The notes: generated by a model not told the origin, from the sequence alone. A stretch of DNA of 64,000 nucleotides from Verrucomicrobiota bacterium (GCA_039818205.1 JBCBUK010000013.1:1-64000), one strand, 5' to 3'. Counted from the stretch's first letter, positions 2,048-44,544 are shown. Translations and numbers: made by a program.

Positions 2048-3859
2048 TTAAAAGGGCGGATCAATACAGACGTAGTCGACGCGAATATCGATGTCGTTGG
2101 CGTTTGGGTCGCTGCTACTAATTGCGATATTTCGACGCGTGAAGGTTCGGTAGTTCTTCGTTAGCGGGATCGGTATCGATCGGTTCAGGCCGATCGATAC
2201 TGGCGGACCTGTTCCGACAATGGCCTGGTTTCCGCCGCCGGTGGTCGCTTCGATGTTCAGGTCTGCCGTGTTAAATGCAGTGCCGCTGGATTTGGCATAC
2301 GCGGTATCCAGCACGCTTTCCAAGGGGAGGATGCGACGAGTGGCATCGATCAGTTCTCGGTGGCCTGATCCGCCGTTGTAAGCATCGACACCGCGTTCTC
2401 GGATGAATCCATGCTGTTTGGGTTGTAAGTGAGCAACCCCGATTGCAGACGCGAGTCCATCGTGCTGATTGGGCCCGAGATCGTGTAACTGATAGCCGAT
2501 GCCAGCGTCAAGTGGATGGCAGGCGATCAGGTTTGCTGTTCCTTGCTTGGCAACCCAACCCGCGCTACCATCTTGTCTTAGCTCGCTGATGTCTTCCATC
2601 GATAAAGCTTTTTGATGCAAAGTAAACTCCGACAGTGAGCCCTTGAAGAAGTTCGAGGAGCCGTTGACGCTTCCTAGGAATAGGTTGTTAGGGTTACTGA
2701 GGCTGCCGATGGCTGAGGTGTCGCCGGTTGCGCTTAGTTGGCCATCGACATAGAGAGTTAAGCCATCGGATGCTCCAGGATTGCAAACCAATGCTAGGTG
2801 ATGCCATTGGTTGTCATTGTAAACTTGCGAGCTCGAGATGCCGTTGCCAATGCTCCCGTCGCTTAGGCTGGCCACAATGAGTCCGCTAGCGTCCAAACGA
2901 ATCTCGAAGAAGCTTGCGCTGGCGCCTTTGCGTAGGAGAACGCAATTGGAGTCTGCGGATCGAAAGGAGAGTGAGATCGACCAACTGCTGCTCATGGTTT
3001 GGTCGAATATCGGCCCGAAGTCTATTGTTCCGGTCGAGCCATCGAGGTAAACGCCATAGCGTGCTGAGGGTGTGAGGGCGGTGCTGCTCGGTATGATCTG
3101 TTGGTCAACGTAGGCCTTTACGCTACGCTGGGTTGGAACGTGAGTTGAGCTTTGCGAGGCAAAGTTGCCTTCATCGATCAGGTCGGCCGTCGCCGCAGTT
3201 CCGAGGCCAAGGTTGGACCTTGCGGTATCTGGATTACTGATATCTGCGAGGTTCTCACTCTGGCGTAGGAAGCGATCGTCGCTTTGAGTTGCCGTGTAGA
3301 ACTGCTGAATCTCACTTGTTGGTGGGCTCAGTTGGCTTTGCCCGCCTCCTAGAATTCGAATTGGGCCAGCGGCTACCGTTCGGACGCGGGATTCGCTGCC
3401 ATTGAGCGTAACGGAGATCGTCAGCCAGCGGTCGCCAGGAGCCAGCGCGGTATCGCTGGAGTCAAAAGTGATGACTGAGTGGGCCCGATCCTCTGCCAGA
3501 GAATCCCACTCCTCAAGGGTAAGGGTTGAGTCAATTGCGCTGGCAGACATTGTCTTCTGGACGATCGGGGCGATGTCGGCGGCTGGCCCACGAAGGTCGA
3601 TCTCTTCGAATGTGTCGACGTCGAAATCTTGTGGTTGCTCGGTGTGCATCGGCTTGATCTCAACGACGATCCGCTCAATGCTAGAGAGATCGCTTAGCAA
3701 TAATCCGTCGTTAAAGAACGCGATCTCGATCTGAGTCGTGTCACCGGAGCGGATTTTTGGGATGAAGTCGGGTATGTCGCTTCGAAGTTGGTCAGTAATG
3801 CTATCGAACTTGAAAAGGTCCGCAGCGATACGAATGCGTGCTGGTTGTATGAGGGACAT
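2048..3859 (-). CDS. Phage fibre/spike-like protein with LamG (concanavalin A-like) domain
   Basis: Tail-fibre repeat-like 'FLRQSENLADISNPDTARSNLGLG'; LamG hallmarks 'YNDNQWHHLALV', 'LTLYVDGQ', 'FFKGSLSEF'. Last gene of the phage module. Confidence 0.75.
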   Translation of the reverse strand: MSLIQPARIRIAADLFKFDSITDQLRSDIPDFIPKIRSGDTTQIEIAFFNDGLLLSDLSSIERIVVEIKPMHTEQPQDFDVDTFEEIDLRGPAADIAPIVQKTMSASAIDSTLTLEEWDSLAEDRAHSVITFDSSDTALAPGDRWLTISVTLNGSESRVRTVAAGPIRILGGGQSQLSPPTSEIQQFYTATQSDDRFLRQSENLADISNPDTARSNLGLGTAATADLIDEGNFASQSSTHVPTQRSVKAYVDQQIIPSSTALTPSARYGVYLDGSTGTIDFGPIFDQTMSSSWSISLSFRSADSNCVLLRKGASASFFEIRLDASGLIVASLSDGSIGNGISSSQVYNDNQWHHLALVCNPGASDGLTLYVDGQLSATGDTSAIGSLSNPNNLFLGSVNGSSNFFKGSLSEFTLHQKALSMEDISELRQDGSAGWVAKQGTANLIACHPLDAGIGYQLHDLGPNQHDGLASAIGVAHLQPKQHGFIRERGVDAYNGGSGHRELIDATRRILPLESVLDTAYAKSSGTAFNTADLNIEATTGGGNQAIVGTGPPVSIGLNRSIPIPLTKNYRTFTRRNIAISSSDPNANDIDIRVDYVCIDPPF

Positions 3860-3888
3860 GATGATTGTGTAAGCTTTGGAATGCAGAG

Positions 3889-4350
3889 TTAAAGGCCGGA
3901 AAGCTCGTCGCTTTTGATCTTCTTCTTGCGGTAGGAGAGGAGAGCGACTCCGACCGAACGGCTGGTGAAGGGCGTTGTTCTAGGATTGTCCGGGATGGAA
4001 ACCGGAAGATCTCCTCGCGAGATAGCAATCAGGCGGTCTAGTGCCTGGTCGATCAGGTCGTCGTGCTTCTCCGTCAGGGTGAAGCCAAGCAAGCGGCTTT
4101 CGAGGGATTGCAGGCACAGTATCGCTGCGGTTTGGAGGTGCTCCGGTGGCAGGTGTTCTGTGTTTTCGCTTAGTTGGTTAAGGGGGTTGTTCAGTATCGC
4201 TTCGCGGATGCGTTGTGTCGCAACTTGAGCTGCGATGATGAACGGGTCGCTACTTGATCCTTGGTTTGGGCGAACTAGAAACGCTTCGCGCTGAGCCGGT
4301 GAGAGCAGTGGTTGAAGGGCGTCGACTGAAAGGGATATCCAGGTGGTCAT
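3889..4350 (-). CDS. Mu gp36-like (DUF1320-like) head completion/adaptor protein
   Basis: 153 aa directly after the capsid gene; pattern 'LPPEH..A..L.L..L..RL...DQALDRLIAISRGDLPVSIP' typical of gp36-like proteins. Confidence 0.7.
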   Translation of the reverse strand: MTTWISLSVDALQPLLSPAQREAFLVRPNQGSSSDPFIIAAQVATQRIREAILNNPLNQLSENTEHLPPEHLQTAAILCLQSLESRLLGFTLTEKHDDLIDQALDRLIAISRGDLPVSIPDNPRTTPFTSRSVGVALLSYRKKKIKSDELSGL

Positions 4351-4378
4351 GGTGTGAACTTTGTATTGAAGAGTTAGT

Positions 4379-4410
4379 GCAGGTAGCGTCGAATGCTCGA
4401 CGCCACCTGC
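4379..4410 (-). terminator. 14-bp stem-loop just downstream of the major capsid gene (mRNA stabiliser or weak terminator)
   Basis: Minus strand GCAGGTGGCGTCGA-gcat-TCGACGCTACCTGC with one G-U pair; no U-tract follows. Confidence 0.55.
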
Positions 4411-4417
4411 TGGAGGG

Positions 4418-5341
4418 CTAGGAAGAGGAAACGTTTAGTTTTCGGACTCCGAGGCTGCTGGTGGCAATGACGGTGCTGTAGTGTTCGACTGTGAGGTCGG
4501 TGAACTTCGTGTGTTCGTCACGGTAGACGCGGTAGGCGCCGTTATCCGTTGGTGTAATGAATCGCTTCAGGTTTGAGGGTTCATCTTTGCTGAGGGTCTG
4601 TTGGCCATAGAATGCAAAGATGGAGTTGCCGACGACGCGGTTCTTGGTGGTTGCGGAGTGTTGGTAGCGCGTTGAAAGGACGCGGATGTCTTCCAGGAAC
4701 AACTTCTGAGCCAGGTCGGTTGTGGTGTAGCTTGCTCCGGCGTTGGCGCCCGCATTGTTCTGGCTCTCGTATGCTGACGCTCGGAGATCCCAGGCGCCTT
4801 CCCCAAGAATGACGCGGTTGGGCCGGATGCCGGACTCGTCGGTCGCAGTGATTAGTTCGGAGCGCAGGTCGCCATCCGGGTTGCTGGAGTTGTTCCAGAT
4901 TACGTTGGAGCTGGCAGCGACGTTATCGAGCACGTTGATCGCGCGACGAAGTTCGTTGCGGAGAAGCCGTTGCAGGAGGACTTGGACGGTTCGCTCCTCC
5001 CAGTCGTCGGAGGTTATCTCGTCGTGATCGACACGCACCGTCAGCCCCTTGTTGAGGGTTTTGGATTGAACGCTTTTACCGGTATATTCTACCCGCTTGA
5101 ATGCGCTTCCGATTGCACGGACGTCGTCGGTTTCGGAGAAGAAGGCCTCGGCGTTGTCGGCGCGTTTGAACTCAAAACGCCTGCCAACGGAGATGCTTGG
5201 CGCGACGAAGTCGAGTAACGATGCCAGGTTCTCTGGGTCTCGCCAGCCGACAGTAAACGCGGTGAGCGCTTCGCTAAAGTGAGCGGCGTTGAACCGGCTT
5301 TCGTTGGCAACTTGAATTTCGTTGTTTGCAGTTGTGGTCAT
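4418..5341 (-). CDS. Major capsid protein (HK97 fold predicted)
   Basis: 307 aa, after protease and cement and before gp36-like. 'GIRPNRVILGEGAW' resembles the PNxxxxG segment of Mu/lambda-type capsid proteins; followed by a hairpin. Confidence 0.75.
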   Translation of the reverse strand: MTTTANNEIQVANESRFNAAHFSEALTAFTVGWRDPENLASLLDFVAPSISVGRRFEFKRADNAEAFFSETDDVRAIGSAFKRVEYTGKSVQSKTLNKGLTVRVDHDEITSDDWEERTVQVLLQRLLRNELRRAINVLDNVAASSNVIWNNSSNPDGDLRSELITATDESGIRPNRVILGEGAWDLRASAYESQNNAGANAGASYTTTDLAQKLFLEDIRVLSTRYQHSATTKNRVVGNSIFAFYGQQTLSKDEPSNLKRFITPTDNGAYRVYRDEHTKFTDLTVEHYSTVIATSSLGVRKLNVSSS

Positions 5342-5373
5342 AATTTTGAATCTTTCTGGTTGTTGGTTTGGAG

Positions 5374-5916
5374 TTAAGATAGGGCGATGATCTTGTCTGG
5401 TGCGGCTTCAAGCGCGGTGCCGAGGTTCGCGACATCAGTGCCGGCGTTGCCGCTGAATGCTGCGACGATGGCAGTTTTGCGGGGAGTGCTGGCCGCGACC
5501 TCGATTGGTTGGTTGTCGCCACTGGTTGCGGTAAGTGCGTGCCCGACAAAGTAAGCGATGCCTGGGCTGTTTGGTTGGTTTTGGACTTTTCCGGAGGCGG
5601 CCGTATAGACCTCGCTGCCTGCGGCGATCGGCTCGCGTGCAACCATGATGATGGTGGTTGACGAGCCGCTTAGTAGCTGAACGTTGACCGGATCGCCGAC
5701 GCTCCCTTGGTCGTTTACAACGCCAACTGGAAAGTCGGTTGTGCCGCAGGCTTCGATCTGGCTTTCGCTCGATCCATAAGTGACGAGTAGGTTCCTGCTA
5801 TCGAGAGCGTCCTCAAGAGTTCGAGTTATGCTGCCGGCGTGAGTGCCAACTGCGACGTTCGCGAAGACGGGTTTGCGGCGGAATAGCTGCTTGATGAACT
5901 TGATAATTGATTTCAT
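5374..5916 (-). CDS. Capsid cement/decoration protein (DUF2190-like)
   Basis: 'PVGVVND..GDPVNVQLL', 'MVAREPIAAGSEVYTAASGKV', 'VGHALTA..DNQPIEV'; between protease and capsid. Probable start MKSIIKF at 5916. Confidence 0.7.
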   Translation of the reverse strand: MKSIIKFIKQLFRRKPVFANVAVGTHAGSITRTLEDALDSRNLLVTYGSSESQIEACGTTDFPVGVVNDQGSVGDPVNVQLLSGSSTTIIMVAREPIAAGSEVYTAASGKVQNQPNSPGIAYFVGHALTATSGDNQPIEVAASTPRKTAIVAAFSGNAGTDVANLGTALEAAPDKIIALS

Positions 5917-5977
5917 AGTTTTTGGTAGTTGATGGTGGTTGTTGGATGAGTGCACACGGGCATAGTGCCCGACTGCG

Positions 5978-6865
5978 TTAGAAAATGTTTTCGCTGTCGA
6001 AGAGCTCTGGCTGCTGGCTTTTGAGCTTGCTCCACGCGGTGGTGAAATCTTCCCCGGTTTTGACTACTCGATCGTTGACCAATGCTAAGAGGTCGTTGCT
6101 TGGGTTCGTGGAGTTGCACGCCTGTCGCAAGTTGGCGGTGATTGTTGCCGTCTTAACAACTGTATCTCGTTCGTTGAGCTTGGTGCGGGTGGCATCAAAG
6201 TCGGTTGAAAGGTCGTTCTCCCAGTGGACACGTTCGTTTGGTGCGATGTAGCCCTCGATGACTGCGGTATCTATGAGCTCGGTGATTGCGCGTTCCTGCT
6301 GCTCGATGGTAACTTGCTTTGGTGGGCCACTTGGAAACCAATCGCCATCTTGTATGTCGGCAAGTTTGGGAGTTTCGTTTGCGATCACGTCCCCGGGAAT
6401 GTTAGGATGATTGGTAAGGCCGATTGAGATCAACCGGGTGGGTCGGTAGCTGCCGTCGAGGTTCTCTCCCATTGCCCAACGGGGGGAGACGTGTTTGTAG
6501 AATGCATTGCGAAGGAGGTTCTTTCCTTCGTAAGACCAGCGAGGGAGGCCGTAGAGGCCGTTTTGGCGGGCTTCGAGATCAACAATCCAGGCATAGGCTC
6601 GAGTGTCGGTATGTCCGCTTTGTCCGGAAAAGTTTGCGTCGTCAGGGTGTCCGATGAAGACTGGTAGCCCGCCGAACTTGCGTGCAAGCCGTCCGCGAAT
6701 CGATTTGAAGTATTGAACAATTTCTCTGGCGGAGGTCTGATCGAAGCGCTGGAGTCCCTGTTCGTGTGGCCAGTCGCCGTACTCCGCGATGCATATCCAG
6801 GTACGAGGGCAAAGGTTGTTTGAGGGGATCTCGGTCGTGTATCCGTTGTTTATGTTATGATTCAT
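5978..6865 (-). CDS. Mu gpI-like prohead protease with C-terminal scaffold region
   Basis: 'PVFIGHPD', 'AYAWIVDLEAR..GLY', 'YKHVSPRW', 'LISIGLTNHPNI' (Mu-like protease family). Confidence 0.88.
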   Translation of the reverse strand: MNHNINNGYTTEIPSNNLCPRTWICIAEYGDWPHEQGLQRFDQTSAREIVQYFKSIRGRLARKFGGLPVFIGHPDDANFSGQSGHTDTRAYAWIVDLEARQNGLYGLPRWSYEGKNLLRNAFYKHVSPRWAMGENLDGSYRPTRLISIGLTNHPNIPGDVIANETPKLADIQDGDWFPSGPPKQVTIEQQERAITELIDTAVIEGYIAPNERVHWENDLSTDFDATRTKLNERDTVVKTATITANLRQACNSTNPSNDLLALVNDRVVKTGEDFTTAWSKLKSQQPELFDSENIF

Positions 6866-6872
6866 TGCTTTG

Positions 6873-8048
6873 TTACTTTGTGGTGCAGAGTTTTGTGTTG
6901 ATGATGGCTTGGATCAGCTCGACGATTTTGTTTGGGAGCGTTTGCGTTAGTGCCTCGAAGTTGCTTGGGTTTTGTTGCGTCGTTTCTTGCGATTCTGGCG
7001 GGAGAATCCTTATGGTGGCATGCGGCTCTTCGTTGAAGAGATGTTTGATTACATAGCGATCGACTTGCTTGTTGAGCGTCTCGGAGAGCTGGATAATGTC
7101 GTCCCGCTCGATGAGTGCGGTTTCCCGGGCCTGGAGAGAGATGCCGGCTCCGTTCTCAGTGATGGTTCCCATGGGAGCGCCTCGCCAAAGAGTGGCGATT
7201 GCTTGGTCCATCCGGTTGATCAGTTCGGGATAGGGAAGGGAGCCGCTGCTGGAGAGATCGATTGCTTGAATATCTGTTCCGTGAGACATCAGGGCATTGA
7301 ACTCTGCGCCAAAGGATTGGACGGCCTCTCGGGCGGCGTCCCACTCTGCTGAACCGGGCGTGGCGTCGGTAGTCCCACGAACACCGGGCATTCCGTTGCG
7401 CTCGCAGTAGACGAGCCAGTCGCGTAGCGGTAGGTGTTTGAACAGGTAGGCAATTGAGCTGGCTTCCATGAGGCCTTCGCCGGTCGTTACCATCCATTCG
7501 CCTTCATTAAGTGACTCGGCTCTCGTTTGGCTCTGGTCGGTTTGAAATCGCAATCGGCCCGTCGAGTTTTCGAAGAACCAAAGTGGCACGAAGCGAAACG
7601 AAGCAGTAAGCATGGGCTCCTGGCCGGCTCTTGGCTCCCAGACGATCTCGTGGACTGCGTAGTGTTTTCCGACAGCATCCATCATCTGGGTGAGTAATAG
7701 GTTTAGACCGCCCCGCTGGTTCTCATCGACAGCGTTGGTGCAGTTAAGGCTTCGGTAGAAGTGTTCGAGGGCGGCTTTGTGTTGCAAAGCTTTTGGGGAG
7801 TTGCTGTGGGTCGTTATCTCCCAGCCGAAGCGTCCGGGGCTCTTTTTTCTTTTGCTAGAGACGGCTTTGATGATGTCGTCTCGCTGTTCAATGGTTTCCC
7901 AAAGCCTGGCGGCTTCAGCGAGATTGCCGGAGTGGAATGAGTCGAGTTTCCGAATCAAGCTTTCCGGGGAAAGTGAGCGGACTGGGTTGAATGCGCTGCG
8001 TCTACTTTTGAGTAGTCGCGAATTTGGTAGCTGTGTGTGAGTTTTCAT
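6873..8048 (-). CDS. Portal protein (Mu gp29/DUF935-like)
   Basis: 'MMDAVGKHYAVHEIVW', 'DWLVYCERNGMPGVRG'; directly after TerL. Confidence 0.88.
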   Translation of the reverse strand: MKTHTQLPNSRLLKSRRSAFNPVRSLSPESLIRKLDSFHSGNLAEAARLWETIEQRDDIIKAVSSKRKKSPGRFGWEITTHSNSPKALQHKAALEHFYRSLNCTNAVDENQRGGLNLLLTQMMDAVGKHYAVHEIVWEPRAGQEPMLTASFRFVPLWFFENSTGRLRFQTDQSQTRAESLNEGEWMVTTGEGLMEASSIAYLFKHLPLRDWLVYCERNGMPGVRGTTDATPGSAEWDAAREAVQSFGAEFNALMSHGTDIQAIDLSSSGSLPYPELINRMDQAIATLWRGAPMGTITENGAGISLQARETALIERDDIIQLSETLNKQVDRYVIKHLFNEEPHATIRILPPESQETTQQNPSNFEALTQTLPNKIVELIQAIINTKLCTTK

Positions 8049-8062
8049 GGTTGAGTTGACGG

Positions 8063-9448
8063 TTAGCGGTGGTTGTGGCGAAAGGGCGCAATGGGTTCGA
8101 AATGGGTCGCTTGTGTAGGTTGGTTCGTGGCGTGGAGGGCGAGGGCGAGTGCCCAGAATCGGTCACCGTGTCCAAATGCGGAACGGCTTGCGGCCAATCG
8201 AACATTTCCTGCTTGGGTTGTTTGCTTCTTTACTGAGCGGAGATCCGCGCGGATCTCTTTGTCTCCTGGGATTCGAATGCGACGGGCTTCAAAGGCGGAT
8301 CTCAGGGGATAGGCGAGGGCTTCCTTGGTTGCGGCGGTGAAGGTGATGCCTTCGATGAGGTATTTGCCATAGCGTTGACGGGCGCGCTCGGTGAACTGTC
8401 GCCCAATGCCGGTTTGGTCGATACAAACCCGACGAAGTCCTTTCAGCTTAAGGAACTTATGAAGAACAGCTTCCTGTTGATCGAATGGCTCTTGGGCGAG
8501 GCATGTAACTTTGCGTGAGAAAGTAAAATCGTTCAGTTTTTCAATGAGCCAGAAAACCGTGAGATCGTTGTCCCGTCCGATATCGACTCCCAGGTAGTAG
8601 GTAGCGCCTTCGCGTTGGAACCCGGAGATTCGATTGGTTGGCGAGAGCCGAAGTTCCCATTTTTCTTCTTCAGCATACTCGGCGGCCCTGATAAGGTCCC
8701 AGGAGAGGAAAGCGGTTTGATCGTCTGCTGGCTGGCAACAATATTCTTGTTGGAAGGATTCCTCGTCGGCGCAACTTTGCCGCACAGAGTTGAAATAGTC
8801 GCCACGATCCATTTCTTGCCGAGGATCGTCGACCGGGAGGCGAGATTGAAGTCGTTCAAGGAATCCGTCCTCGAGGGCATCTTCGAGTGTTACACGGTGA
8901 AGCGAGATGCCTTTTCGGTTGTCGCCGTGACGCGCTTCGTTGACGAGACTATTGAAGTAGTTGTGTGCTCCGCGGTGGGTGGAAATGATCTCGAGTTGCC
9001 CGCCCCAAGTTGTTCCGGGTTGTGCAATTGAATAGAGTTGGCGGGGGTTTGTATGAAGTGCAAACTCGTCGAGTACCCGGTGTCCCCGTTTGCCGGCCTG
9101 GGCGTCGGGGCTGCTGGTTAATGAATGGATTTGGGTTCTGTTGGCTAGTGTTAATCGTTCACTGTGATTGCGTTGATTTGATTCGAGGGTCGGCGTTGCT
9201 AAGTGAATGGCTTCAGCGAACAGTTGGCAGTCATTGAGGAAAAGCTTTGCCTGCACCGCATCACGGGAGGCAACCCAAGTGTCGTGATGTTGCCCTGTGG
9301 TGCAACTGCGGCGGACGCAGTTATAGGCAGTAGCCCATGAGATGCCGACCTGGCGTGACTTTTCCATGATCTTGATTGGCGAGCGGTCTTCGATCCACCG
9401 ACGTTGGTAAGGTAGAAACAGTGGTTGTTGTGCTAGTGGTTGACTCAT
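8063..9448 (-). CDS. Terminase large subunit (Mu gp28-like)
   Basis: 'FLPYQRRW', Walker A 'EKSRQVGISW', Walker B 'RVLDEFA', motif III 'ISTHRG', nuclease 'LGVDIGR', 'CIDQTGIG', 'GHGDRFWALALA'. Confidence 0.95.
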   Translation of the reverse strand: MSQPLAQQPLFLPYQRRWIEDRSPIKIMEKSRQVGISWATAYNCVRRSCTTGQHHDTWVASRDAVQAKLFLNDCQLFAEAIHLATPTLESNQRNHSERLTLANRTQIHSLTSSPDAQAGKRGHRVLDEFALHTNPRQLYSIAQPGTTWGGQLEIISTHRGAHNYFNSLVNEARHGDNRKGISLHRVTLEDALEDGFLERLQSRLPVDDPRQEMDRGDYFNSVRQSCADEESFQQEYCCQPADDQTAFLSWDLIRAAEYAEEEKWELRLSPTNRISGFQREGATYYLGVDIGRDNDLTVFWLIEKLNDFTFSRKVTCLAQEPFDQQEAVLHKFLKLKGLRRVCIDQTGIGRQFTERARQRYGKYLIEGITFTAATKEALAYPLRSAFEARRIRIPGDKEIRADLRSVKKQTTQAGNVRLAASRSAFGHGDRFWALALALHATNQPTQATHFEPIAPFRHNHR

Positions 9449-9544
9449 CGTGTGTTAGCGCTGTTTGTTCGGAAGGAAGCTTTGGGATGCAGAGTTGGGT
9501 AAAGAATCTCGACAGATACGGCGTCTTCGGGCATGCTATAGGCT

Positions 9545-9961
9545 ATGAAATCGTTATCTTCCCGTAGGCCCTTATTGGTTTTCGTTTTTGCAGTCTTGAC
9601 GGTCGTTACCGGATGGACTTTTGCTCAGAACAATTCAAATCAGTCCGGTCCGGTTCCGGTCACGGGCTATGATGTGATTCCGGGAAGGCCACAGCCAGGT
9701 GTTGGCCGTTTGTTGGATCGGGTTGAGACGAAGCTGAATCGCATTATTCAGCAGCAAGGTGGGCGCTACATTTTCTTAGTGTCTTCGGAAGACGATCTTT
9801 GGCGGTTGGATACTTACACTGGTAAGGTGGCGATTTTGAATCTTGTACGGGGTGCGGAGTGGGATACTTTGGATGTTCCCGAGAAAACGCTTCAGCCGGG
9901 TAATGCCTTCTATGAACAGTTTGTGCAGAAGTTGGACGGTATTAACTTCAACACGAACTGA
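9545..9961 (+). CDS. Hypothetical secreted protein inserted antisense between TerS-like and TerL genes
   Basis: 138 aa with signal peptide (MKSLSSRRPLLVFVFAVLTVVTGWTFA|Q) and 'LWRLDTYTGKV'. Confidence 0.7.
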   Translation: MKSLSSRRPLLVFVFAVLTVVTGWTFAQNNSNQSGPVPVTGYDVIPGRPQPGVGRLLDRVETKLNRIIQQQGGRYIFLVSSEDDLWRLDTYTGKVAILNLVRGAEWDTLDVPEKTLQPGNAFYEQFVQKLDGINFNTN

Positions 9962-9999
9962 GTTTCGCTGGTATCACCGTTGTCGCGCCCACTTGAGCG

Positions 10000-10377
10000 C
10001 TAGAGCAGGTTGAGCCGACGTTCGATTTCTCGCAATGTCGCGGGTGGTATGCCGGACTCGTCGTCTTTCGGTTGGTGAGTCTGATCGAACTGGTGTTTCT
10101 TCATGCTGTACTCGCCGTGTTTGATCGCGCCCTCGCGGAACTTGAACTCAACGGACTTAAGCTGGACGAGTGAGGCGCTTAGTTTTTGAAGGATTGCGAC
10201 GAGTGAGGCGAGCTCAGTCGTATCGGGCTTGGGGTCATGCACGAAGCAGTGGCGTAGTGCCTCCCAGGCTCGGTTGATTGAGTCGGTCGCGGCGGAGTAG
10301 CCCGGGCAGGTGAGTTCGAGCATTTGCTCGGTTTCGAGTTGATCGTCGAGGAGTTGTTCGGTGTCAAAGTTTGTCAT
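10000..10377 (-). CDS. Putative small terminase (Mu gp27/DUF3486-like, short)
   Basis: Upstream of TerL, helical, C-terminus 'GIPPATLREIERRLNLL' resembling gp27-like tails. Probable start MTNFDTE at 10377. Confidence 0.55.
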   Translation of the reverse strand: MTNFDTEQLLDDQLETEQMLELTCPGYSAATDSINRAWEALRHCFVHDPKPDTTELASLVAILQKLSASLVQLKSVEFKFREGAIKHGEYSMKKHQFDQTHQPKDDESGIPPATLREIERRLNLL

Positions 10378-10404
10378 GGTTCTATTTATTTTCTTAGGAA
10401 ATTG

Positions 10405-10488
10405 GACTTTGCCGGGCAAAGTCATGGGTTGCACCTAAGGCTTAGGTGTTTCTGTTTGTAGGAGTGGTAGAACTTTGCCCGGCAAAGC
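10405..10488. promoter_or_regulatory. Three adjacent palindromes upstream of the TerS-like gene
   Basis: GACTTTGCC-G-GGCAAAGTC (10405-10423), CACCTAAG-G-CTTAGGTG (10432-10448), ACTTTGCC-C-GGCAAAGC (10472-10488). Confidence 0.65.
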
Positions 10489-10493
10489 TTGCT

Positions 10494-10808
10494 TTATGGG
10501 TGGCGGTGGATTCGGTCGAGCTCGGCTAGGCGTTGGCCGTGGAACTTGCTCTGAGCAATGAGTGCGGCTATGTGTTCGGCGTTTTCTCCCACGAGGCGTT
10601 GCAAGTTTGCGATATCTGACTTGGTGTCTCGTTGGTGTGCGTGCAGTTCTTCGCGGAGGTAACGCAGGTCGGTCTGGGTAGCGTAAGTTAGTTTTGGGTC
10701 TGGCTTTTCACGGAAGTGATCGCGAATGCGCAAGACCAGGAGGACGGCTCCCAGGAGCGAGATACTGCCGATTGTGACTAGACCGAGGATGTGGTTTGGA
10801 TCGGACAT
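10494..10808 (-). CDS. Membrane-anchored coiled-coil protein (positional equivalent of Mu gp25/DUF2730)
   Basis: N-terminal TM helix then coiled coil; lies between holin-like and TerS-like genes. Confidence 0.55.
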   Translation of the reverse strand: MSDPNHILGLVTIGSISLLGAVLLVLRIRDHFREKPDPKLTYATQTDLRYLREELHAHQRDTKSDIANLQRLVGENAEHIAALIAQSKFHGQRLAELDRIHRHP

Positions 10809-10865
10809 GTGGTGCTTGTATGCGGATATGATAACGAGTTGGAGCCTTTGCTCTGGAATGCAGAG

Positions 10866-11315
10866 TTAGAAGCGATTGTGTCCGGCGAGTGATCCACCGA
10901 AGTAGAGGCCGATGATTGCACTAAGCAGGTGCGTATCAAGTGGGGTAATGGTCAGGCCTTTTACTTCTTTCCAATGGATTTTTTCGACATCGTTGGTAAA
11001 GAACCAGAAGCCTTCTTCGATTTTCGGATAGCCAACTTGCATCAGGATATCGGGTCGCCAGATGGCGATAATTTTCGGCAGAGCAATAACCGATAGCACG
11101 CAGGTAAGCGCAATCACTCGCCGGGTCCATTGGAAACCGGAATTTGAGTAACGGCGTGCGGCATCGATGTAGCCTGCTTGTTCGTTGAGCGCCTGCATCG
11201 CCATGAGACGTTCTTCGCGTCTCGCAGCGTTGGACATCGCCCAGATCTTCATAACGCCACCGAGCATGGACGAGCCAAGCAGGGTGACGAGTTCAGCGGG
11301 AAAGGCCGGATTCAT
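10866..11315 (-). CDS. Putative holin-like membrane protein
   Basis: Three hydrophobic segments, 'FQWTRRVIAL', C-terminal 'AIIGLYFGG' like 3-TM phage/GTA holins; first gene of the module. Confidence 0.55.
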   Translation of the reverse strand: MNPAFPAELVTLLGSSMLGGVMKIWAMSNAARREERLMAMQALNEQAGYIDAARRYSNSGFQWTRRVIALTCVLSVIALPKIIAIWRPDILMQVGYPKIEEGFWFFTNDVEKIHWKEVKGLTITPLDTHLLSAIIGLYFGGSLAGHNRF

Positions 11316-11355: not shown

Positions 11356-11411
11356 TCGGGAACGTTCCCGAAGGATGTGTGTATGATATCAAATATCCGC
11401 TTAACGCTCAA
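11356..11411 (-). promoter_or_regulatory. Sigma70-like promoter plus downstream palindromic operator for the phage module
   Basis: Minus strand TTGAGC (11411-11406), 17 nt, TATCAT (11388-11383) with extended -10 TG. Perfect palindrome TCGGGAACGTTCCCGA at 11356-11371. Confidence 0.6.
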
Positions 11412-11665
11412 TGTGCCGGTTGGTTCCCGTGCTTGGGTGGGGCGCGTTTGCTTGGTTGGCTTGCCAAGCTCGAAACTGGGGGTATTCCGATATTATCCGT
11501 CACTGGTTTTTGCGCACCTTTGTCGTGGTTTACCGCCTTGCCGGAGAATTGTGTGCGGCCTATTACTGGGGGGTAGGGAATAACAGTCGGAGGAGGCATT
11601 TTTTTTGAAAAAAATTGATCCCGGACTTGGAAAACGGAGAGAAATCCGATTATTTTGAATCCATT

Positions 11666-21431: not shown

Positions 21432-22157
21432 ATGTCTCAATCCACTCCAGATTTCGAAGGCGTCTTGTTGATCGACAAACCACAGGGTTGCACCTCGCAC
21501 GATGTGGTCGATCGCGTCCGCCGGAAGTTGAAAATGAAGAAGGTCGGGCACGCCGGCACTTTGGACCCCAATGCGACGGGCCTGCTGATAATGCTGATCG
21601 GCAAGGCAACTAAGGTTTCCCAGTACCTTATGTCTTTGGACAAGGAGTATGAGGGCGTCATCAAGCTCGGCGAGATAACCAACTCCTATGATTCCGAAGG
21701 CGAAATCATGGAGACGCGCGATGTTCCGGAGCTCGACGAAGCCCGGGTCAACGAGGTGTTTGGCGAGTTCCTGGGTGACCAATACCAGACGCCGCCAATG
21801 TTTTCCGCGAAGAAAATCGATGGTGTGCCGCTCTACAAGCTGGCCCGAAAGGGTAAAGAAATCGAGCGTGAGCCTCGCTTTATTCGCATTTCCCGCATCG
21901 AGCTGACCAAGCTGGAGACTCCAGAGCTGACCTTCGAGGTCGCCTGCAGCAAGGGAACTTACATCCGAACGCTCGCACATGACATCGGTGAAAAACTGGG
22001 CTGCGGCGCGCACCTGTCAGCCCTCCGGCGCACCGTCAGCGGCAGTTTCAAGATTTCTCAATGCACACCGCTGGATAAGTTTGAGGACCTCACCGCCGTG
22101 GAGATCCGGCGCCGGCTGATTCCGATCTATCAAGCGGTCCCGAGCCACGTCTTGTAG
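21432..22157 (+). CDS. truB: tRNA pseudouridine(55) synthase
   Basis: 'GHAGTLDP', '[11 protein letters not shown]', '[10 protein letters not shown]'. Confidence 0.97.
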
Positions 22158-28032: not shown

Positions 28033-29172
28033 CTAGAGATCGCGGATCGTTTTGTAGTGCCGGGGGACGCGCTTGGTGATCGAGCAAAAGACTTCCCACG
28101 GGATCGAGTCGGACCACTTGGCGAACTCGCCGACCGATATGGAGCTGTTTGCCTGGTGTCCGATCAAGGTGGCGGTGTCGCCAACGGCGGCATCGGCGAG
28201 ATCCGTTACGTCAACGACCGTCTGATCCATCGTGATGCGCCCGAGCACGGGGCAGCGATGACCCCGAATGAGGACCGATGCGCGGTTACTAACCGTAAAC
28301 GGAATGCCATCGCCATAGCCAGCAGTCAGCACCGCGACCTTACTGCGGCGGCGTAGCTTGTGCGATTGGCCGTAGCTAATCGGGACTCCTGATGGGAGTT
28401 CTTTGATTAAGCTGATCTTTGCATGGAAACTGAGCACGGGTTCCACTTGTATACGCCCGAGAAGAGATCCGGAATAGGGTGCGTGGCCGAACTGAAGAAG
28501 ACCCACGCGGACCGCGTTGAACGGGCTATCGGGAGCCAGGGTGTCGAGTCCCGCGCTATTGTCGGCGTGGACCAACAAGCCGTTACCCGCGAGAGCTGGC
28601 AATTTGTCGATGACTGAGAGAAAGCGTTTGCGCTGGAGCAGGGTATACTCGGGGTCGCAGTCGGCGCTCGAAAAATGGGTGTAGACCCCTTCGAGTTGAA
28701 CATGCTTTGCACTGCAAAGCTGGTTGAACAGGGTTTCGACCTCGGTGTGCCAGACGCCGAGGCGACCCATGCCAGTATCAATCTTCAAGTGGGCGCGGAT
28801 GGGGCGTTTGGCTTTCTTGCCGACCTTCTCTAGCCGTGCGATCTCTTCGGCTGTTGATATGGTAGCGATCAAATCATAGTCGAGCAGGTGCGCCTCTTCA
28901 CCCGGCAAGACCGCGCCAAGGATCAGGATGGGCCAACCGGCGCCTATCTCGCGAAGCTCAGCGGCCTCGAATACATTGGCGACTCCAAAGGCATCCGCTC
29001 CACTTTGCATGAGTCGGGCCACCGTTTGCGGCATGCCGTGCCCATAGGCGTCGGCCTTTACGATCGCCATGTAGCAGATGTGCTGCGGGAGCGCGGCTCG
29101 GATCTTGCCGAGGTTGCGTTCAAGCGCGGCCAGATCTATTTCTGCCCAGCAACGATGGGTTGAGCCGTTCAT
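28033..29172 (-). CDS. alr: Alanine racemase
   Basis: 'IVKADAYGHG', 'HLKIDTGMGRLG', 'GYGDG', 'GRITMDQ'. Confidence 0.97.
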   Translation of the reverse strand: MNGSTHRCWAEIDLAALERNLGKIRAALPQHICYMAIVKADAYGHGMPQTVARLMQSGADAFGVANVFEAAELREIGAGWPILILGAVLPGEEAHLLDYDLIATISTAEEIARLEKVGKKAKRPIRAHLKIDTGMGRLGVWHTEVETLFNQLCSAKHVQLEGVYTHFSSADCDPEYTLLQRKRFLSVIDKLPALAGNGLLVHADNSAGLDTLAPDSPFNAVRVGLLQFGHAPYSGSLLGRIQVEPVLSFHAKISLIKELPSGVPISYGQSHKLRRRSKVAVLTAGYGDGIPFTVSNRASVLIRGHRCPVLGRITMDQTVVDVTDLADAAVGDTATLIGHQANSSISVGEFAKWSDSIPWEVFCSITKRVPRHYKTIRDL

Positions 29173-37479: not shown

Positions 37480-38471
37480 CGGTTGCGTTCGTCGTCGAAG
37501 AAAAAATCGAGTCCGATTGGGTAGTGGTCACTGCCCAAGTCCGGGCCGATATATTGGTCCACTGGCTTCAGCTGATCGGACAGGAAAAAGTGGTCAATTG
37601 GTATCCACAAAATTGGATTCTGGGTGGGCCAGGTGCGCCGCGGAAAGACACTGGTAACGACCGGATCTAAGCGGCTTTGCAATACAAAGTCATCGTAAAA
37701 CACTGACCATGGTGTCGTATTGAAATCGCCCATAACGAGCACGGGCGCTTCGATGGCGCTCTCACTGCTGAACCGCGCAATGGCTTTGAGGGCGTCGTCA
37801 CGGTAGTTCCAGGAGCGTTCGTTGATGGGAGATAGCGCATGGACAAGCAGCAGCATGAGTGGCCCGTCGGGCGTCGATACTTTGTAGGGCAGCGATCCGA
37901 TGCCGGCGAACCCATGCTTTTGTCTAGAGTCGGTCGGTGGATATTTGCTGAGTACCGTGGTTCCGTAGCGATCGCCCCAGAGTTGAGTTCGCTGATAAGG
38001 TAGGATGTCCTTGAGGCCGTCGAGGGTGGGGCGCCATTCATCGGTGATCTCAATCAGCGCAACGAAATCTGGTTCCTGTTCGCGGATCCAGCGTTCGGTT
38101 CGAGAAATCTGTGCATTCTGCGTGTAGACGTTGATGCTCACCGCCCGGTAGACTCGCCCCTCGGTTTGGAAACGCTGCGGGTTGAAATTAAAGATGTAGT
38201 AGCCGTTCCAGAGAAATACCAGGAGGTTAAGCACGAGCAGTACGTGGTAGCGGCGCCAAGCAGCGATCGCGCAGATGATCAAGGCGGCTAAATAATACTG
38301 CATTTTGAAATTTGCGAATAGCTCGATCCGCCAATCCTCCCGTCCCCAGAATCCTGCGGCCGTCATCGCGACGAGGAGGACCCAGGCGATGAAAAGTACG
38401 AACCGCTCGAAGCCGTGCCAAGTGAGCCACTTGCGGCGGGTTCGGGAAATCATGGTTCCATCCGAACTCAT
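37476..38471 (-). CDS. Membrane-anchored endonuclease/exonuclease/phosphatase family protein
   Basis: N-terminal TMs, 'SINV', 'VMGDFNTTPWS', 'IPIDH', 'GSDHYPI'. Confidence 0.88.
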   Translation of the reverse strand: MSSDGTMISRTRRKWLTWHGFERFVLFIAWVLLVAMTAAGFWGREDWRIELFANFKMQYYLAALIICAIAAWRRYHVLLVLNLLVFLWNGYYIFNFNPQRFQTEGRVYRAVSINVYTQNAQISRTERWIREQEPDFVALIEITDEWRPTLDGLKDILPYQRTQLWGDRYGTTVLSKYPPTDSRQKHGFAGIGSLPYKVSTPDGPLMLLLVHALSPINERSWNYRDDALKAIARFSSESAIEAPVLVMGDFNTTPWSVFYDDFVLQSRLDPVVTSVFPRRTWPTQNPILWIPIDHFFLSDQLKPVDQYIGPDLGSDHYPIGLDFFFDDERNR

Positions 38472-43133: not shown

Positions 43134-44544
43134 AGCGGCGTGGGTCGAGGAACTGATCGAGCACTTGCTCACGCGATGCGTATGAGAGGGGCTCGATCTC
43201 TGAGGCAGCGACCTTCTGATAAATGTTGAACAAATTTTCGCCGTACTGCTCGAGGCTAAATGCCTCGGCGATTAATTCACGGTTTGCGATAATCGTTGCC
43301 TGCGACGGTCGCTCGAGGACATTCGGCTTAATTGCCTCACGTGCAGAGGAATCATTGTTGAGGCGCGTGATGACCTTTTCCTGAAGCGGTTCAGAAAGTC
43401 GACCAAACTCGATGCGTTCTCCAGCCGTCATCGAGGCAAATGCAATCTCAACGGCGTGTCCCGGCATATCACGGTTGTAGGCGGCGTAGTAGGCGCGCAG
43501 GCCCTGTTCGAGGGTCGCCCGAACGGTGTCTTCTCCAAGCCAGCTAGTCGGCACCAGCATGCGATCGTAAAGATTGTTTAGCTCCACCCCTGCCTTCGAA
43601 AAATCGCTGGTAATGTCTGGGATGTTCCGCCCGACGAGCGGTTGGTCGAACAAATAAGGCTCAAGAAAGGCCAAGCCAAATCCTTCAGCGACACTAGTAG
43701 TGATGATTGCGTCTGCGCCTGCCATCATCGCTGGAAACGATATGTCGGTTTCCTCCCCCAGCGCAAAACGAACGGGTAGGCCGATGCCTTTGGCGAACTC
43801 GCGCCAGCGATTGTGAATCGGTTTGGCGGTCGGGTTCGATGGGCTCAGGGTCGTGGCCAACACGGTATCCTCATCAGCAATCGCCGCCCACAGGAGTATC
43901 TCACCAAGGTTCTTGCGGCGAATCGCCCGCGTTGGGTAGAGAAGTAGACGCTTGTCCGAAAACTCCGGCAATGGTTGCTTCTCAACGTTGAGCTTGTTCA
44001 ACGATACCGGATTGGGTAGTAGATGCAAACTTTGCGATGCAAAGCCACAGTCAGTCAGATAACTCAGATCACGTGAATTGAGCAGACCGTAATGCACTTG
44101 CGATCCCTGCGGATAGAGCTTCTTCAGGTTGGGAATCAGCTTCTCCATTGAGGCGTAATTGCTCGGGCGCCCGTCCTCGGCGAAATCATGGACCTGCAAC
44201 AGCACGGGTTTCTCGGCTGCAATGCGATCGATCACCTGCGGTATAGCGGTGTTTTTGCCAAGGCAATGATTGTGGATATGCCAGATGTCGGGTTCACCCT
44301 CGAGCGCATCACGAGCCGCCTTGCGCATGTTGAACCACAACGCGCCAGGATCAGGTTTCTCGTTGGGCTGTGTGTAAGCCAAACCGGGTACAACTGTATG
44401 AGGCAGGGCGGCATCACCGGTGTACGGCTCGCTGGTCAGAGCAACCATTTCCACGTCCCGCCCTTGCAATGCCGCAAAAGCGTTTTCCATAACCCGGGTG
44501 ACTCCGCCGGGCTTGAGATGATAGTGAACAGTGGCTACACGCAT
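43114..44544 (-). CDS. GT-B glycosyltransferase adjacent to gpgS
   Basis: 'HYHLKPGGVTRV', 'YPTRAIRRKNLGE', 'TTSVAEGFGLAFLEP'. Confidence 0.8.
   Translation of the reverse strand: MRVATVHYHLKPGGVTRVMENAFAALQGRDVEMVALTSEPYTGDAALPHTVVPGLAYTQPNEKPDPGALWFNMRKAARDALEGEPDIWHIHNHCLGKNTAIPQVIDRIAAEKPVLLQVHDFAEDGRPSNYASMEKLIPNLKKLYPQGSQVHYGLLNSRDLSYLTDCGFASQSLHLLPNPVSLNKLNVEKQPLPEFSDKRLLLYPTRAIRRKNLGEILLWAAIADEDTVLATTLSPSNPTAKPIHNRWREFAKGIGLPVRFALGEETDISFPAMMAGADAIITTSVAEGFGLAFLEPYLFDQPLVGRNIPDITSDFSKAGVELNNLYDRMLVPTSWLGEDTVRATLEQGLRAYYAAYNRDMPGHAVEIAFASMTAGERIEFGRLSEPLQEKVITRLNNDSSAREAIKPNVLERPSQATIIANRELIAEAFSLEQYGENLFNIYQKVAASEIEPLSYASREQVLDQFLDPRRFNLLRT

Follow-up and report, generated by a model that had tools for sequence, protein, structure and literature searches.

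The window analysed here is a stretch of 64,000 nucleotides from a Verrucomicrobiota bacterium (GCA_039818205.1, JBCBUK010000013.1:1-64000; source genome G000, 4.85 Mb), and it carries, between nadA and corA, a capsid locus of approximately 9.3 kb, referred to as the module, through which a 17-base palindrome, RCTYTG-N5-CARAGY, is scattered. The module genes, a putative promoter and the palindrome sites are collected in Table 1. No integrase, replication or repressor genes were found between nadA and corA.

Nine exact and four one-mismatch copies of the palindrome lie in the module, at the positions given in an earlier note on this DNA. The window as a whole contains 12 exact matches, whereas 100 dinucleotide shuffles gave 0.10 on average (maximum 2); outside the module it also has one-mismatch copies at 21558, 42386 and 45004. 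Three exact copies, rather than the one previously counted by eye, fall in the remaining ∼54 kb. Since the motif is found genome-wide, the appropriate background is the genome's own rate rather than equal base frequencies. At that rate, 13 module sites were detected by position weight matrix versus 0.35 expected (Poisson p 1.5e-16). The reported placement of sites just upstream of start codons was also recovered, at distances of 13 bases for the fibre-like gene, 7 for the adaptor, 9 for the protease, 30 for the terminase large subunit (TerL), 28 for the small terminase-like (TerS-like) gene and 41 for the gene at 10494–10808, as was the presence of sites within the coding sequences of fibre, protease, portal and TerL. 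The genome-wide matrix yields the refined consensus RCTYTGY-N3-RCARAGY. In G010, G012 and G017, the spacer corresponding to that of site 10472 holds an 88 to 89 amino acid (aa) phage gene, which was not found in the G000 spacer.

Table 1. Genes, putative promoter and palindrome sites in the window, in positions of the whole stretch
Feature	Position	Strand	Remark
Fibre-like protein, C-terminal laminin G domain	2048..3859	-	
Head-tail adaptor	3889..4350	-	phrog_195 match in 3/6 homologs, best E 1e-6
Major capsid protein	4418..5341	-	phrog_1005
Cement/decoration protein	5374..5916	-	PF09956, slightly below cut-off
Mu I-like protease/scaffold	5978..6865	-	PF10123
Mu-type portal	6873..8048	-	PF06074
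Terminase large subunit (TerL)	8063..9448	-	
138 aa protein, hydrophobic N-terminus, no family matched	9545..9961	+ (opposite strand)	
Mu gp27-like, putative small terminase (TerS-like)	10000..10377	-	Atlas lead: PF11985 in 34% of cluster, score 0.93
104 aa membrane/coiled-coil protein	10494..10808	-	Homolog weakly matches Rz-like spanin family (E 0.002)
First gene, 149 aa membrane protein, phrog_38283 (function unknown)	10866..11315	-	89-91% identical in congeners
Promoter-like site, extended -10, putative	11383..11411	-	Stretch conserved in five g1 genomes
Site, 1 mismatch, within fibre gene	2607..2623	.	Not conserved in G003
Exact site within fibre gene	3149..3165	.	G003 has site at same codon
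Exact site at adaptor stop, before fibre start	3873..3889	.	
Site, 1 mismatch, before adaptor start	4358..4374	.	
Site, 1 mismatch, within protease	6617..6633	.	Same codon in six g1 genomes, G008 and motif-poor G015
Exact site in final portal codons, before protease start	6875..6891	.	
Exact site within portal	7774..7790	.	Same codon in six g1 genomes and G008
Site, 1 mismatch, within TerL	8508..8524	.	Same codon in all six g1 genomes
Exact site within TerL	8774..8790	.	Same codon in all six g1 genomes
Exact site between TerL start and opposite-strand gene	9479..9495	.	
Exact site before TerS-like start	10406..10422	.	
Exact site, 5 bases past stop of 10494-10808 gene	10472..10488	.	
Exact site overlapping first operon gene's stop	10850..10866	.	
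Exact site outside module, within alanine racemase gene	28704..28720	.	
Exact site outside module, within Exo_endo_phos family gene	37674..37690	.	
Exact site outside module, within glycosyltransferase gene	44029..44045	.	

Across G000, 128 exact copies have the 5-base spacer, as compared to 1–8 for spacers of 0–4 and 6–11 bases, and no other spaced palindrome in G000 is as strong (z 24, as compared to 7.8 for the next unrelated word). A matrix scan returned 197 sites at a false discovery rate of ∼10%, and the densest 10 kb is the module itself, with 13 sites versus 5 in the runner-up. By our own approximate gene calls, 95 of the 128 exact sites are intragenic; the module was left out or corrected in genome-wide tests. 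The idea that the motif marks the capsid locus alone did not survive, as approximately 180 further sites lie in unrelated genes. Nor did other dense clusters reveal unlinked tail or lysis loci, none being present among 20 cluster loci of G000 and six of G003 and G008, in a survey that left ∼70 site-bearing G000 genes unannotated. Genes of repair type carry sites in both G000 and G008 (mutS, polB, recD2, a long UvrA-like gene and an SNF2 helicase), a bias that lacks a proper denominator. Recent prophage DNA, with boundaries set by eye, contains two weak sites in ∼135 kb versus 5.1 expected, which is not significant. Two other features of G000 were recorded: a single open reading frame of ∼16,200 codons (C1:377972-426583) and two canonical parS-like palindromes, different from RCTYTG-N5-CARAGY, at C10:32127 and 32175.

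Among 301 Opitutales genomes, exact copies number 98–371 in the genus of G000 (g1), 93 in G010, 47 in G008, 24 in G029 and 14 in G111; the remaining 292 genomes have 0–13. Genus g1 is probably Cerasicoccus, the closest named capsid sequence being that of Cerasicoccus arenae (L074) at 78%. The module is enriched 15- to 62-fold for the motif in all seven examined genomes having both, and contains 0–1 exact sites in the six motif-poor genomes examined. Of the module, G010 retains the first four genes alone, at corA and devoid of sites. Neither motif nor module thus requires the other. From these sequence comparisons, sites appear to have multiplied in one clade (g1, G008 and G010) to approximately 50–370 per genome, via point substitution. 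A literature search with six spellings of the motif found no paper, with subscription journals and supplements (regulon tables) poorly covered.

The palindrome had been proposed to be a dimeric protein site rather than an RNA hairpin, and its halves show no excess of complementary pairing: out of 161, complementary pairs numbered 76, 116, 70 and 44, as compared to 86, 119, 79 and 44 by chance. Synonymous shuffles yielded 6–11 exact coding sites versus 91 observed, and coding sites occupy all three frames (52/47/19). Four coding sites (protease, portal and TerL) are at the identical codon in all six g1 genomes, and five of six module coding sites score at the same codon in G003, at synonymous divergence (dS) of 1.5 to saturated. 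At the site codons, alignments with motif-poor relatives need no gaps, and the residues encoded there often differ, as at portal site 7774, where ALQHKA or ALRHKA gives way to other residues. Turnover is faster outside the module: G000 retains 5 of the 17 clustered sites of G003 and 1 of the 6 of G008. A synonymous-site test (9/12 versus 118/797) was biased by four sites having been picked as conserved and is not relied on. These patterns indicate that the palindrome is a protein site under selection.

The candidate binder was located through distant relatives. A phylum-wide scan recovered a few distant genomes with 1–3 near-perfect palindrome copies, and 10 of 20 loci fetched outside the clade (10 of 16 genomes) have as neighbour a gene for a membrane protein, one for an HTH_34 winged-helix protein or both, in many cases with sites on either side. 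G000 encodes a single HTH_34 match (C14:39460-39831), whose operon partner is an uncharacterised multi-pass membrane protein (C14:38823-39467) that matches no Pfam or NCBIfam family. A tandem operator pair, 18 bases apart, lies just upstream of the regulator operon in G000, G001, G002, G003, G005 and G010, single upstream operators in G008, G016 and G020, and pairs further upstream, ahead of an apparently longer operon, in G012–G015. In total, 13 of 15 order-level HTH_34 loci examined (G012–G015 included) have an upstream palindrome, which is missing from the G016 paralog and weak in G029. The same 18-base pairing occurs at 10 strong G000 sites, versus 0–1 for other offsets of 17–40, and the modules of the five congeners all show it. 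With a matrix built from 24 operators outside the clade, each of the 13 module sites reaches at least 11 bits, a partly circular result. A regulator ortholog is present in 31 of the 301 genomes, including all nine with at least 14 exact sites; G004 (72% complete, 180 sites) gave no regulator match. All 21 homologs compared carry the same recognition-helix residues, TDGNL, and the modelled regulator adopts a MarR/ArsR-like winged-helix fold, closest to PH1061. Direct binding of the palindrome by this HTH_34 regulator is very probable. The expectation that the binder is host-encoded and absent from the module agrees with the data, in that the module proteins include no regulator family and the candidate is on contig C14.

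Other candidate binders were rejected. The TerS-like protein shows 33–39% identity within the genus, has two invariant columns and occurs in motif-poor relatives. A ParB-like protein (C9:101178) was not found in motif-rich G003, G008 and G010 and is present in motif-poor G016. LexA, XRE and S24 repressors have no sites nearby; an SOS box is likewise disfavoured, the best S24 gene (C4:242.7-243.3 kb) having none upstream and the repair-gene sites lying mostly within coding sequence.

Structure prediction of the regulator dimer with its membrane protein gave a complex score of 0.36 (best of three controls, 0.00), with at least 69% contact agreement across runs and a partner pLDDT (predicted local distance difference test) of at least 69. 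In calibration, 116 of 157 solved and 2 of 215 mismatched pairs attained the score mark, but those that did so with 0.60 or less were only 18 of the solved pairs and both mismatched ones; the prediction lends weak support to a regulator–membrane protein complex. Tandem operators are also present after nrdA (C2:144339; L225:1343-1377), before a small unknown gene and an OsmC-like gene; they are kept in g1 and g5 and are likely a remnant of an ancestral regulon. In distant genomes (L199, L200, L207 and L212) the regulator is followed by genes for HMG-CoA synthase-like, B12 radical-SAM and MpaB/Lcp-like oxygenase proteins, hinting at a membrane-lipid regulon. Four distant genomes (L201, L208, L209 and L210) have one palindrome copy with conserved flanks where the same two-gene operon begins, homologous to C3:300066 and C3:88306, which we take to be sulfur amino-acid enzymes; this copy may be an RNA element. 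No paper on HTH_34 (PF13601) was found in a literature search in which subscription journals were poorly covered.

Enrichment of sites over half-site expectation drops from 28-fold through 24-, 18- and 12-fold to 2.3-fold as codon adaptation rises, and in regression the rate ratio is 0.31 for the initial 600 bases of co-oriented gene runs and 0.65 per standard deviation of the codon adaptation index, versus 1.76 in gene runs ending at a tight convergent junction; the interaction between the last 1.5 kb and a tight junction did not reach significance. Of all sites, 12% lie no more than 20 bases from a stop codon, as compared to 2.5% of random positions, and 43 sites lie at 259 convergent junctions with gaps of 30 bases or less versus 13 at 203 junctions with gaps above 60 (p 0.0017), a test that omitted 87 intermediate junctions (10 sites). 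In a separate observation, a strong site lies ∼16 bases past the rho stop codon (G000 C5:51312; L094:4312). Outside the module, sites are not oriented with transcription (weaker half upstream in 43, downstream in 36, equal in 83); within it, orientation was 6 versus 1 (p 0.125), and orientation with replication was weak (35 versus 55, p 0.045). Avoidance of promoter-proximal DNA and of highly expressed genes is as expected for a transcription roadblock.

Evolutionary conservation of the module was examined among the same Opitutales genomes. Capsid matches, weak prophage matches included, occur in 128 of 301 genomes (by family, f1 11/12, f3 22/24, f4 10/11, f8 15/17 and f19 7/8) and are near-universal in several families with genomes of 0.7–1.0 Mb. 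The module is usually present in single copy, inherited vertically and kept in gene order; its tree recovers genera g1 and g5 as monophyletic, with deep nodes unresolved. Where dS is finite, the nonsynonymous to synonymous ratio (dN/dS) is 0.04–0.14 for capsid, 0.05–0.14 for portal, 0.13–0.17 for TerL and ∼0.29–0.72 for the cement, adaptor and TerS-like genes. The queries used recovered no tail genes. The G001, G002 and G005 loci (L021, L022 and L025) stop at the capsid gene, without adaptor and fibre, which argues for a head-only operon under selection; fibre-domain matches in G001 and G005 were rejected as module parts, since they belong to ordinary prophages. As far as its genes tell, the module appears to be a vertically kept, domesticated Mu-type head operon resembling a gene transfer agent (GTA), and its first-gene membrane protein may be holin-like, a role that we infer only. 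No paper on an Opitutales GTA was found, again with subscription journals poorly covered.

Variant modules were also observed. In G010 (C4; L127:9342-11381) the first four genes are intact by corA, and TerL to fibre is replaced by a 1507-aa STAND/HEAT-repeat gene. The G017 module is split (L128, L042), with TerL, TerS-like and fibre-like genes on one contig and portal to adaptor on another. The module is kept in the 0.8–0.9 Mb genomes G022, G018 and G033 (L036, L037 and L038); G022 and G018 have two additional genes of ∼130–155 aa before fibre and a 578-aa gene after it, with no PHROG match in G022. A second palindrome, YGTATY-N8/9-ATACR, noted among the modules of G009, G012–G015 and G024 (L029–L033, L039), is often placed at module gene junctions in g5, with 20–96 copies per genome (a motif defined post hoc) and, in the module, three copies each in G013 and G015 (versus ∼0.2 expected), two in G009, one in G014 and zero strict copies in G012. 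This is possibly an independent capture by another regulator.

In four congeners, a palindrome site lies between the promoter-like stretch and the first start codon. Upstream of that stretch, four congeners (L022, L023, L025 and L021) contain three to four direct repeats of ∼9 bases, GAGCCAACT-like, which are degenerate in G000 near 11440-11470 and represent a candidate activator site. The transcript strand of the module is richer in C than in G, with 8 of 9 called module genes at the 95th–100th percentile of lagging-strand genes, and the C>G excess over flanks is found in 6/6 g1 genomes and 0/5 g5 genomes. This skew could possibly aid Rho termination behind a roadblock; help from Rho is proposed only tentatively. 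A skew resembling Rho utilisation (rut) sites ahead of palindromes genome-wide was sought and not found, spacers with sites being if anything G-richer.

The same regulator could instead serve chromosome architecture or insulation, through nucleoid organisation, membrane tethering via its partner or a stop to read-through at terminator-less gene ends, with the module tolerating many sites because it is normally silent. Sites spread across core genes of unrelated function, their avoidance of promoters and highly expressed genes, their preference for tight convergent junctions, the 93 sites retained by G010 without structural genes and the placement of only 4 of 47 sites of the complete genome G008 in the quarter opposite dnaA all fit such a role. 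It leaves unexplained the top rank of the module (13 versus 5), the sites before six genes and the better retention of module coding sites (5/6) than of the other clustered G003 sites (5/17), and contig C8 of G000, which has a skew switch, holds seven strong sites over 225 kb, a density close to that of the whole genome; we consider architecture unlikely. Less likely again is a mark for packaging, as the earlier note had offered, or for transfer; in the version considered here, bound regulator would recruit terminase, DNA near sites would be transferred more and sites would spread by molecular drive, much like the uptake sequences of Neisseria and Pasteurellaceae. The pattern does resemble uptake sequences (core genes, all frames, proteins altered to fit, frequent placement right after stops), a self-packaging locus would be the densest, sites are scarce in recent prophage DNA, though not significantly, and repair-type genes shared by G000 and G008 carry sites, though with the denominator problem given above. 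Yet neither G010, with 93 sites, nor G029, with 24, has a match to TerL, portal or capsid (in G010 by loss), the motif elsewhere is an ordinary autoregulatory operator, and tandem operators before gene starts suit transcription control.

A different, clade-restricted protein of the same specificity might bind the expanded sites and leave the HTH_34 regulator to its own operon, as would suit the regulator-bearing g5 and f2 genomes without expansion and a DNA-reading helix without clade-specific change; with a single HTH_34 match in G000, all 13 module sites scored by the outside-operator matrix and the 18-base tandem spacing common to both sets, this is very improbable. Least credible of all are RNA hairpins or an inserted repeat of the repetitive extragenic palindrome (REP) or miniature inverted-repeat transposable element (MITE) type. 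Perfect pairing is possible in some copies (10406, 10472) and many copies come after stop codons, but the pairing counts above do not exceed chance, the spacer keeps a constant length of 5 bases while its sequence varies, and orthologous codons in motif-poor relatives align without insertions.

Several known systems offer comparison. SdpR-SdpI of Bacillus subtilis pairs a small autorepressing winged-helix protein with a multi-pass membrane protein encoded alongside it, and its regulon is local; the operon described here has the same composition but involves different families (HTH_34 and an unclassified membrane protein), and the NCBIfam match on which the comparison draws, NF033789, is weak (E 0.007, far below cut-off). 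DNA uptake sequences of Neisseria and Pasteurellaceae are ungapped asymmetric 9- to 12-mers, present in more than 1000 copies and read outside the cell; the palindrome shares with them many core-gene copies in all frames, altered proteins and common placement after stops, and differs in being gapped, in its 47–371 exact copies and in its cytoplasmic candidate reader. Noc and SlmA are transcription-factor-like dimers repurposed for scattered chromosomal sites, many of them intragenic and absent from the terminus, whereas G000 shows no clear terminus exclusion, has a larger number of sites and concentrates them strongly on one operon. The stoperators of cluster A mycobacteriophages (L5, TipsytheTRex), to which the sites had been likened, are many copies of one repressor site across phage genes, proposed to halt elongation; they are asymmetric 13-mers, oriented with transcription, in short intergenic spaces and bound by a phage-encoded monomer (PMC9283540). 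The analogy holds for function only, as one site repeated through phage genes with a putative elongation block; here the site is a symmetric 17-mer, unoriented genome-wide (43 versus 36), often intragenic, accompanied by ∼180 further chromosomal sites and bound by a protein that is apparently host- rather than phage-encoded. In the Caulobacter GTA (RogA, GafYZ, terGTA), RogA acts at the activators' promoter and the elongation block is a repeat terminator (PMC11150451). Both systems would combine a domesticated head-packaging cluster with silencing by a host repressor and an elongation block within the cluster, but the repressor proposed here would act directly on 13 structural-operon sites of a Mu-type module for which no tail genes were found.

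The reading preferred here, somewhat better than even in our estimation, is that a co-opted host repressor silences the domesticated capsid operon at many points through a clade-specific expansion of its sites. The ancestral state across Verrucomicrobiota would be a regulator whose operators, one to a few in number, lie at its own operon; the sites would then have multiplied in a single clade, with the capsid operon as the densest target, where operators precede six of ten module genes and lie inside three or four. Bound dimers would block transcription at many points and keep a costly operon silent; from the placement of sites, repression by roadblock is reasonably probable. Release of the regulator, plausibly through capture at its membrane partner, would turn the operon on, a step proposed only tentatively.

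A number of observations weigh against this reading. The ∼180 other sites lie in genes without common function, no site falls in the capsid (4418-5341) or cement (5374-5916) gene, and the G000 leader lacks the site present in four congeners. A bias away from 5' ends is odd for a classical repressor, and ordinary MarR/ArsR repressors are not known to act as strong elongation roadblocks. G008 has four module sites without C>G excess, and the excess is present in motif-poor G024 and G028. The nine site-rich genomes amount to approximately three independent lineages. Of the 31 regulator carriers, 22 have no site expansion, so the regulator alone fails to explain it, and the non-expanded carriers G012–G015, G016, G055, G099 and G117 also hold the module, with 0–1 sites. 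The operator of G029 itself is weak (10 bits). The correlation between the outside-operator and genome matrices (r=0.97) is partly circular because the outside operators were found using the same motif, so that position beside the regulator is the only independent part of the footprint.

If silencing by the HTH_34 regulator is correct, these findings would put a name to a testable switch of a GTA-like capsid operon retained in many Opitutales, including those with genomes of 0.7–1.0 Mb. We regard it as improbable that the regulator is in addition the capsid's address system, silencing the operon and, upon release or renewed binding, directing packaging to site-bearing DNA, with sites spread across core genes by transfer-driven drive; were this true, the palindrome would be the equivalent of an uptake sequence for a GTA. 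A local operator appears to have multiplied roughly a hundredfold inside coding sequence, altering proteins, while sister genera retain a small regulon. This may constitute a natural experiment on the origin of global regulators and nucleoid proteins, and on whether DNA roadblocks encoded by the host shape bacterial transcription.

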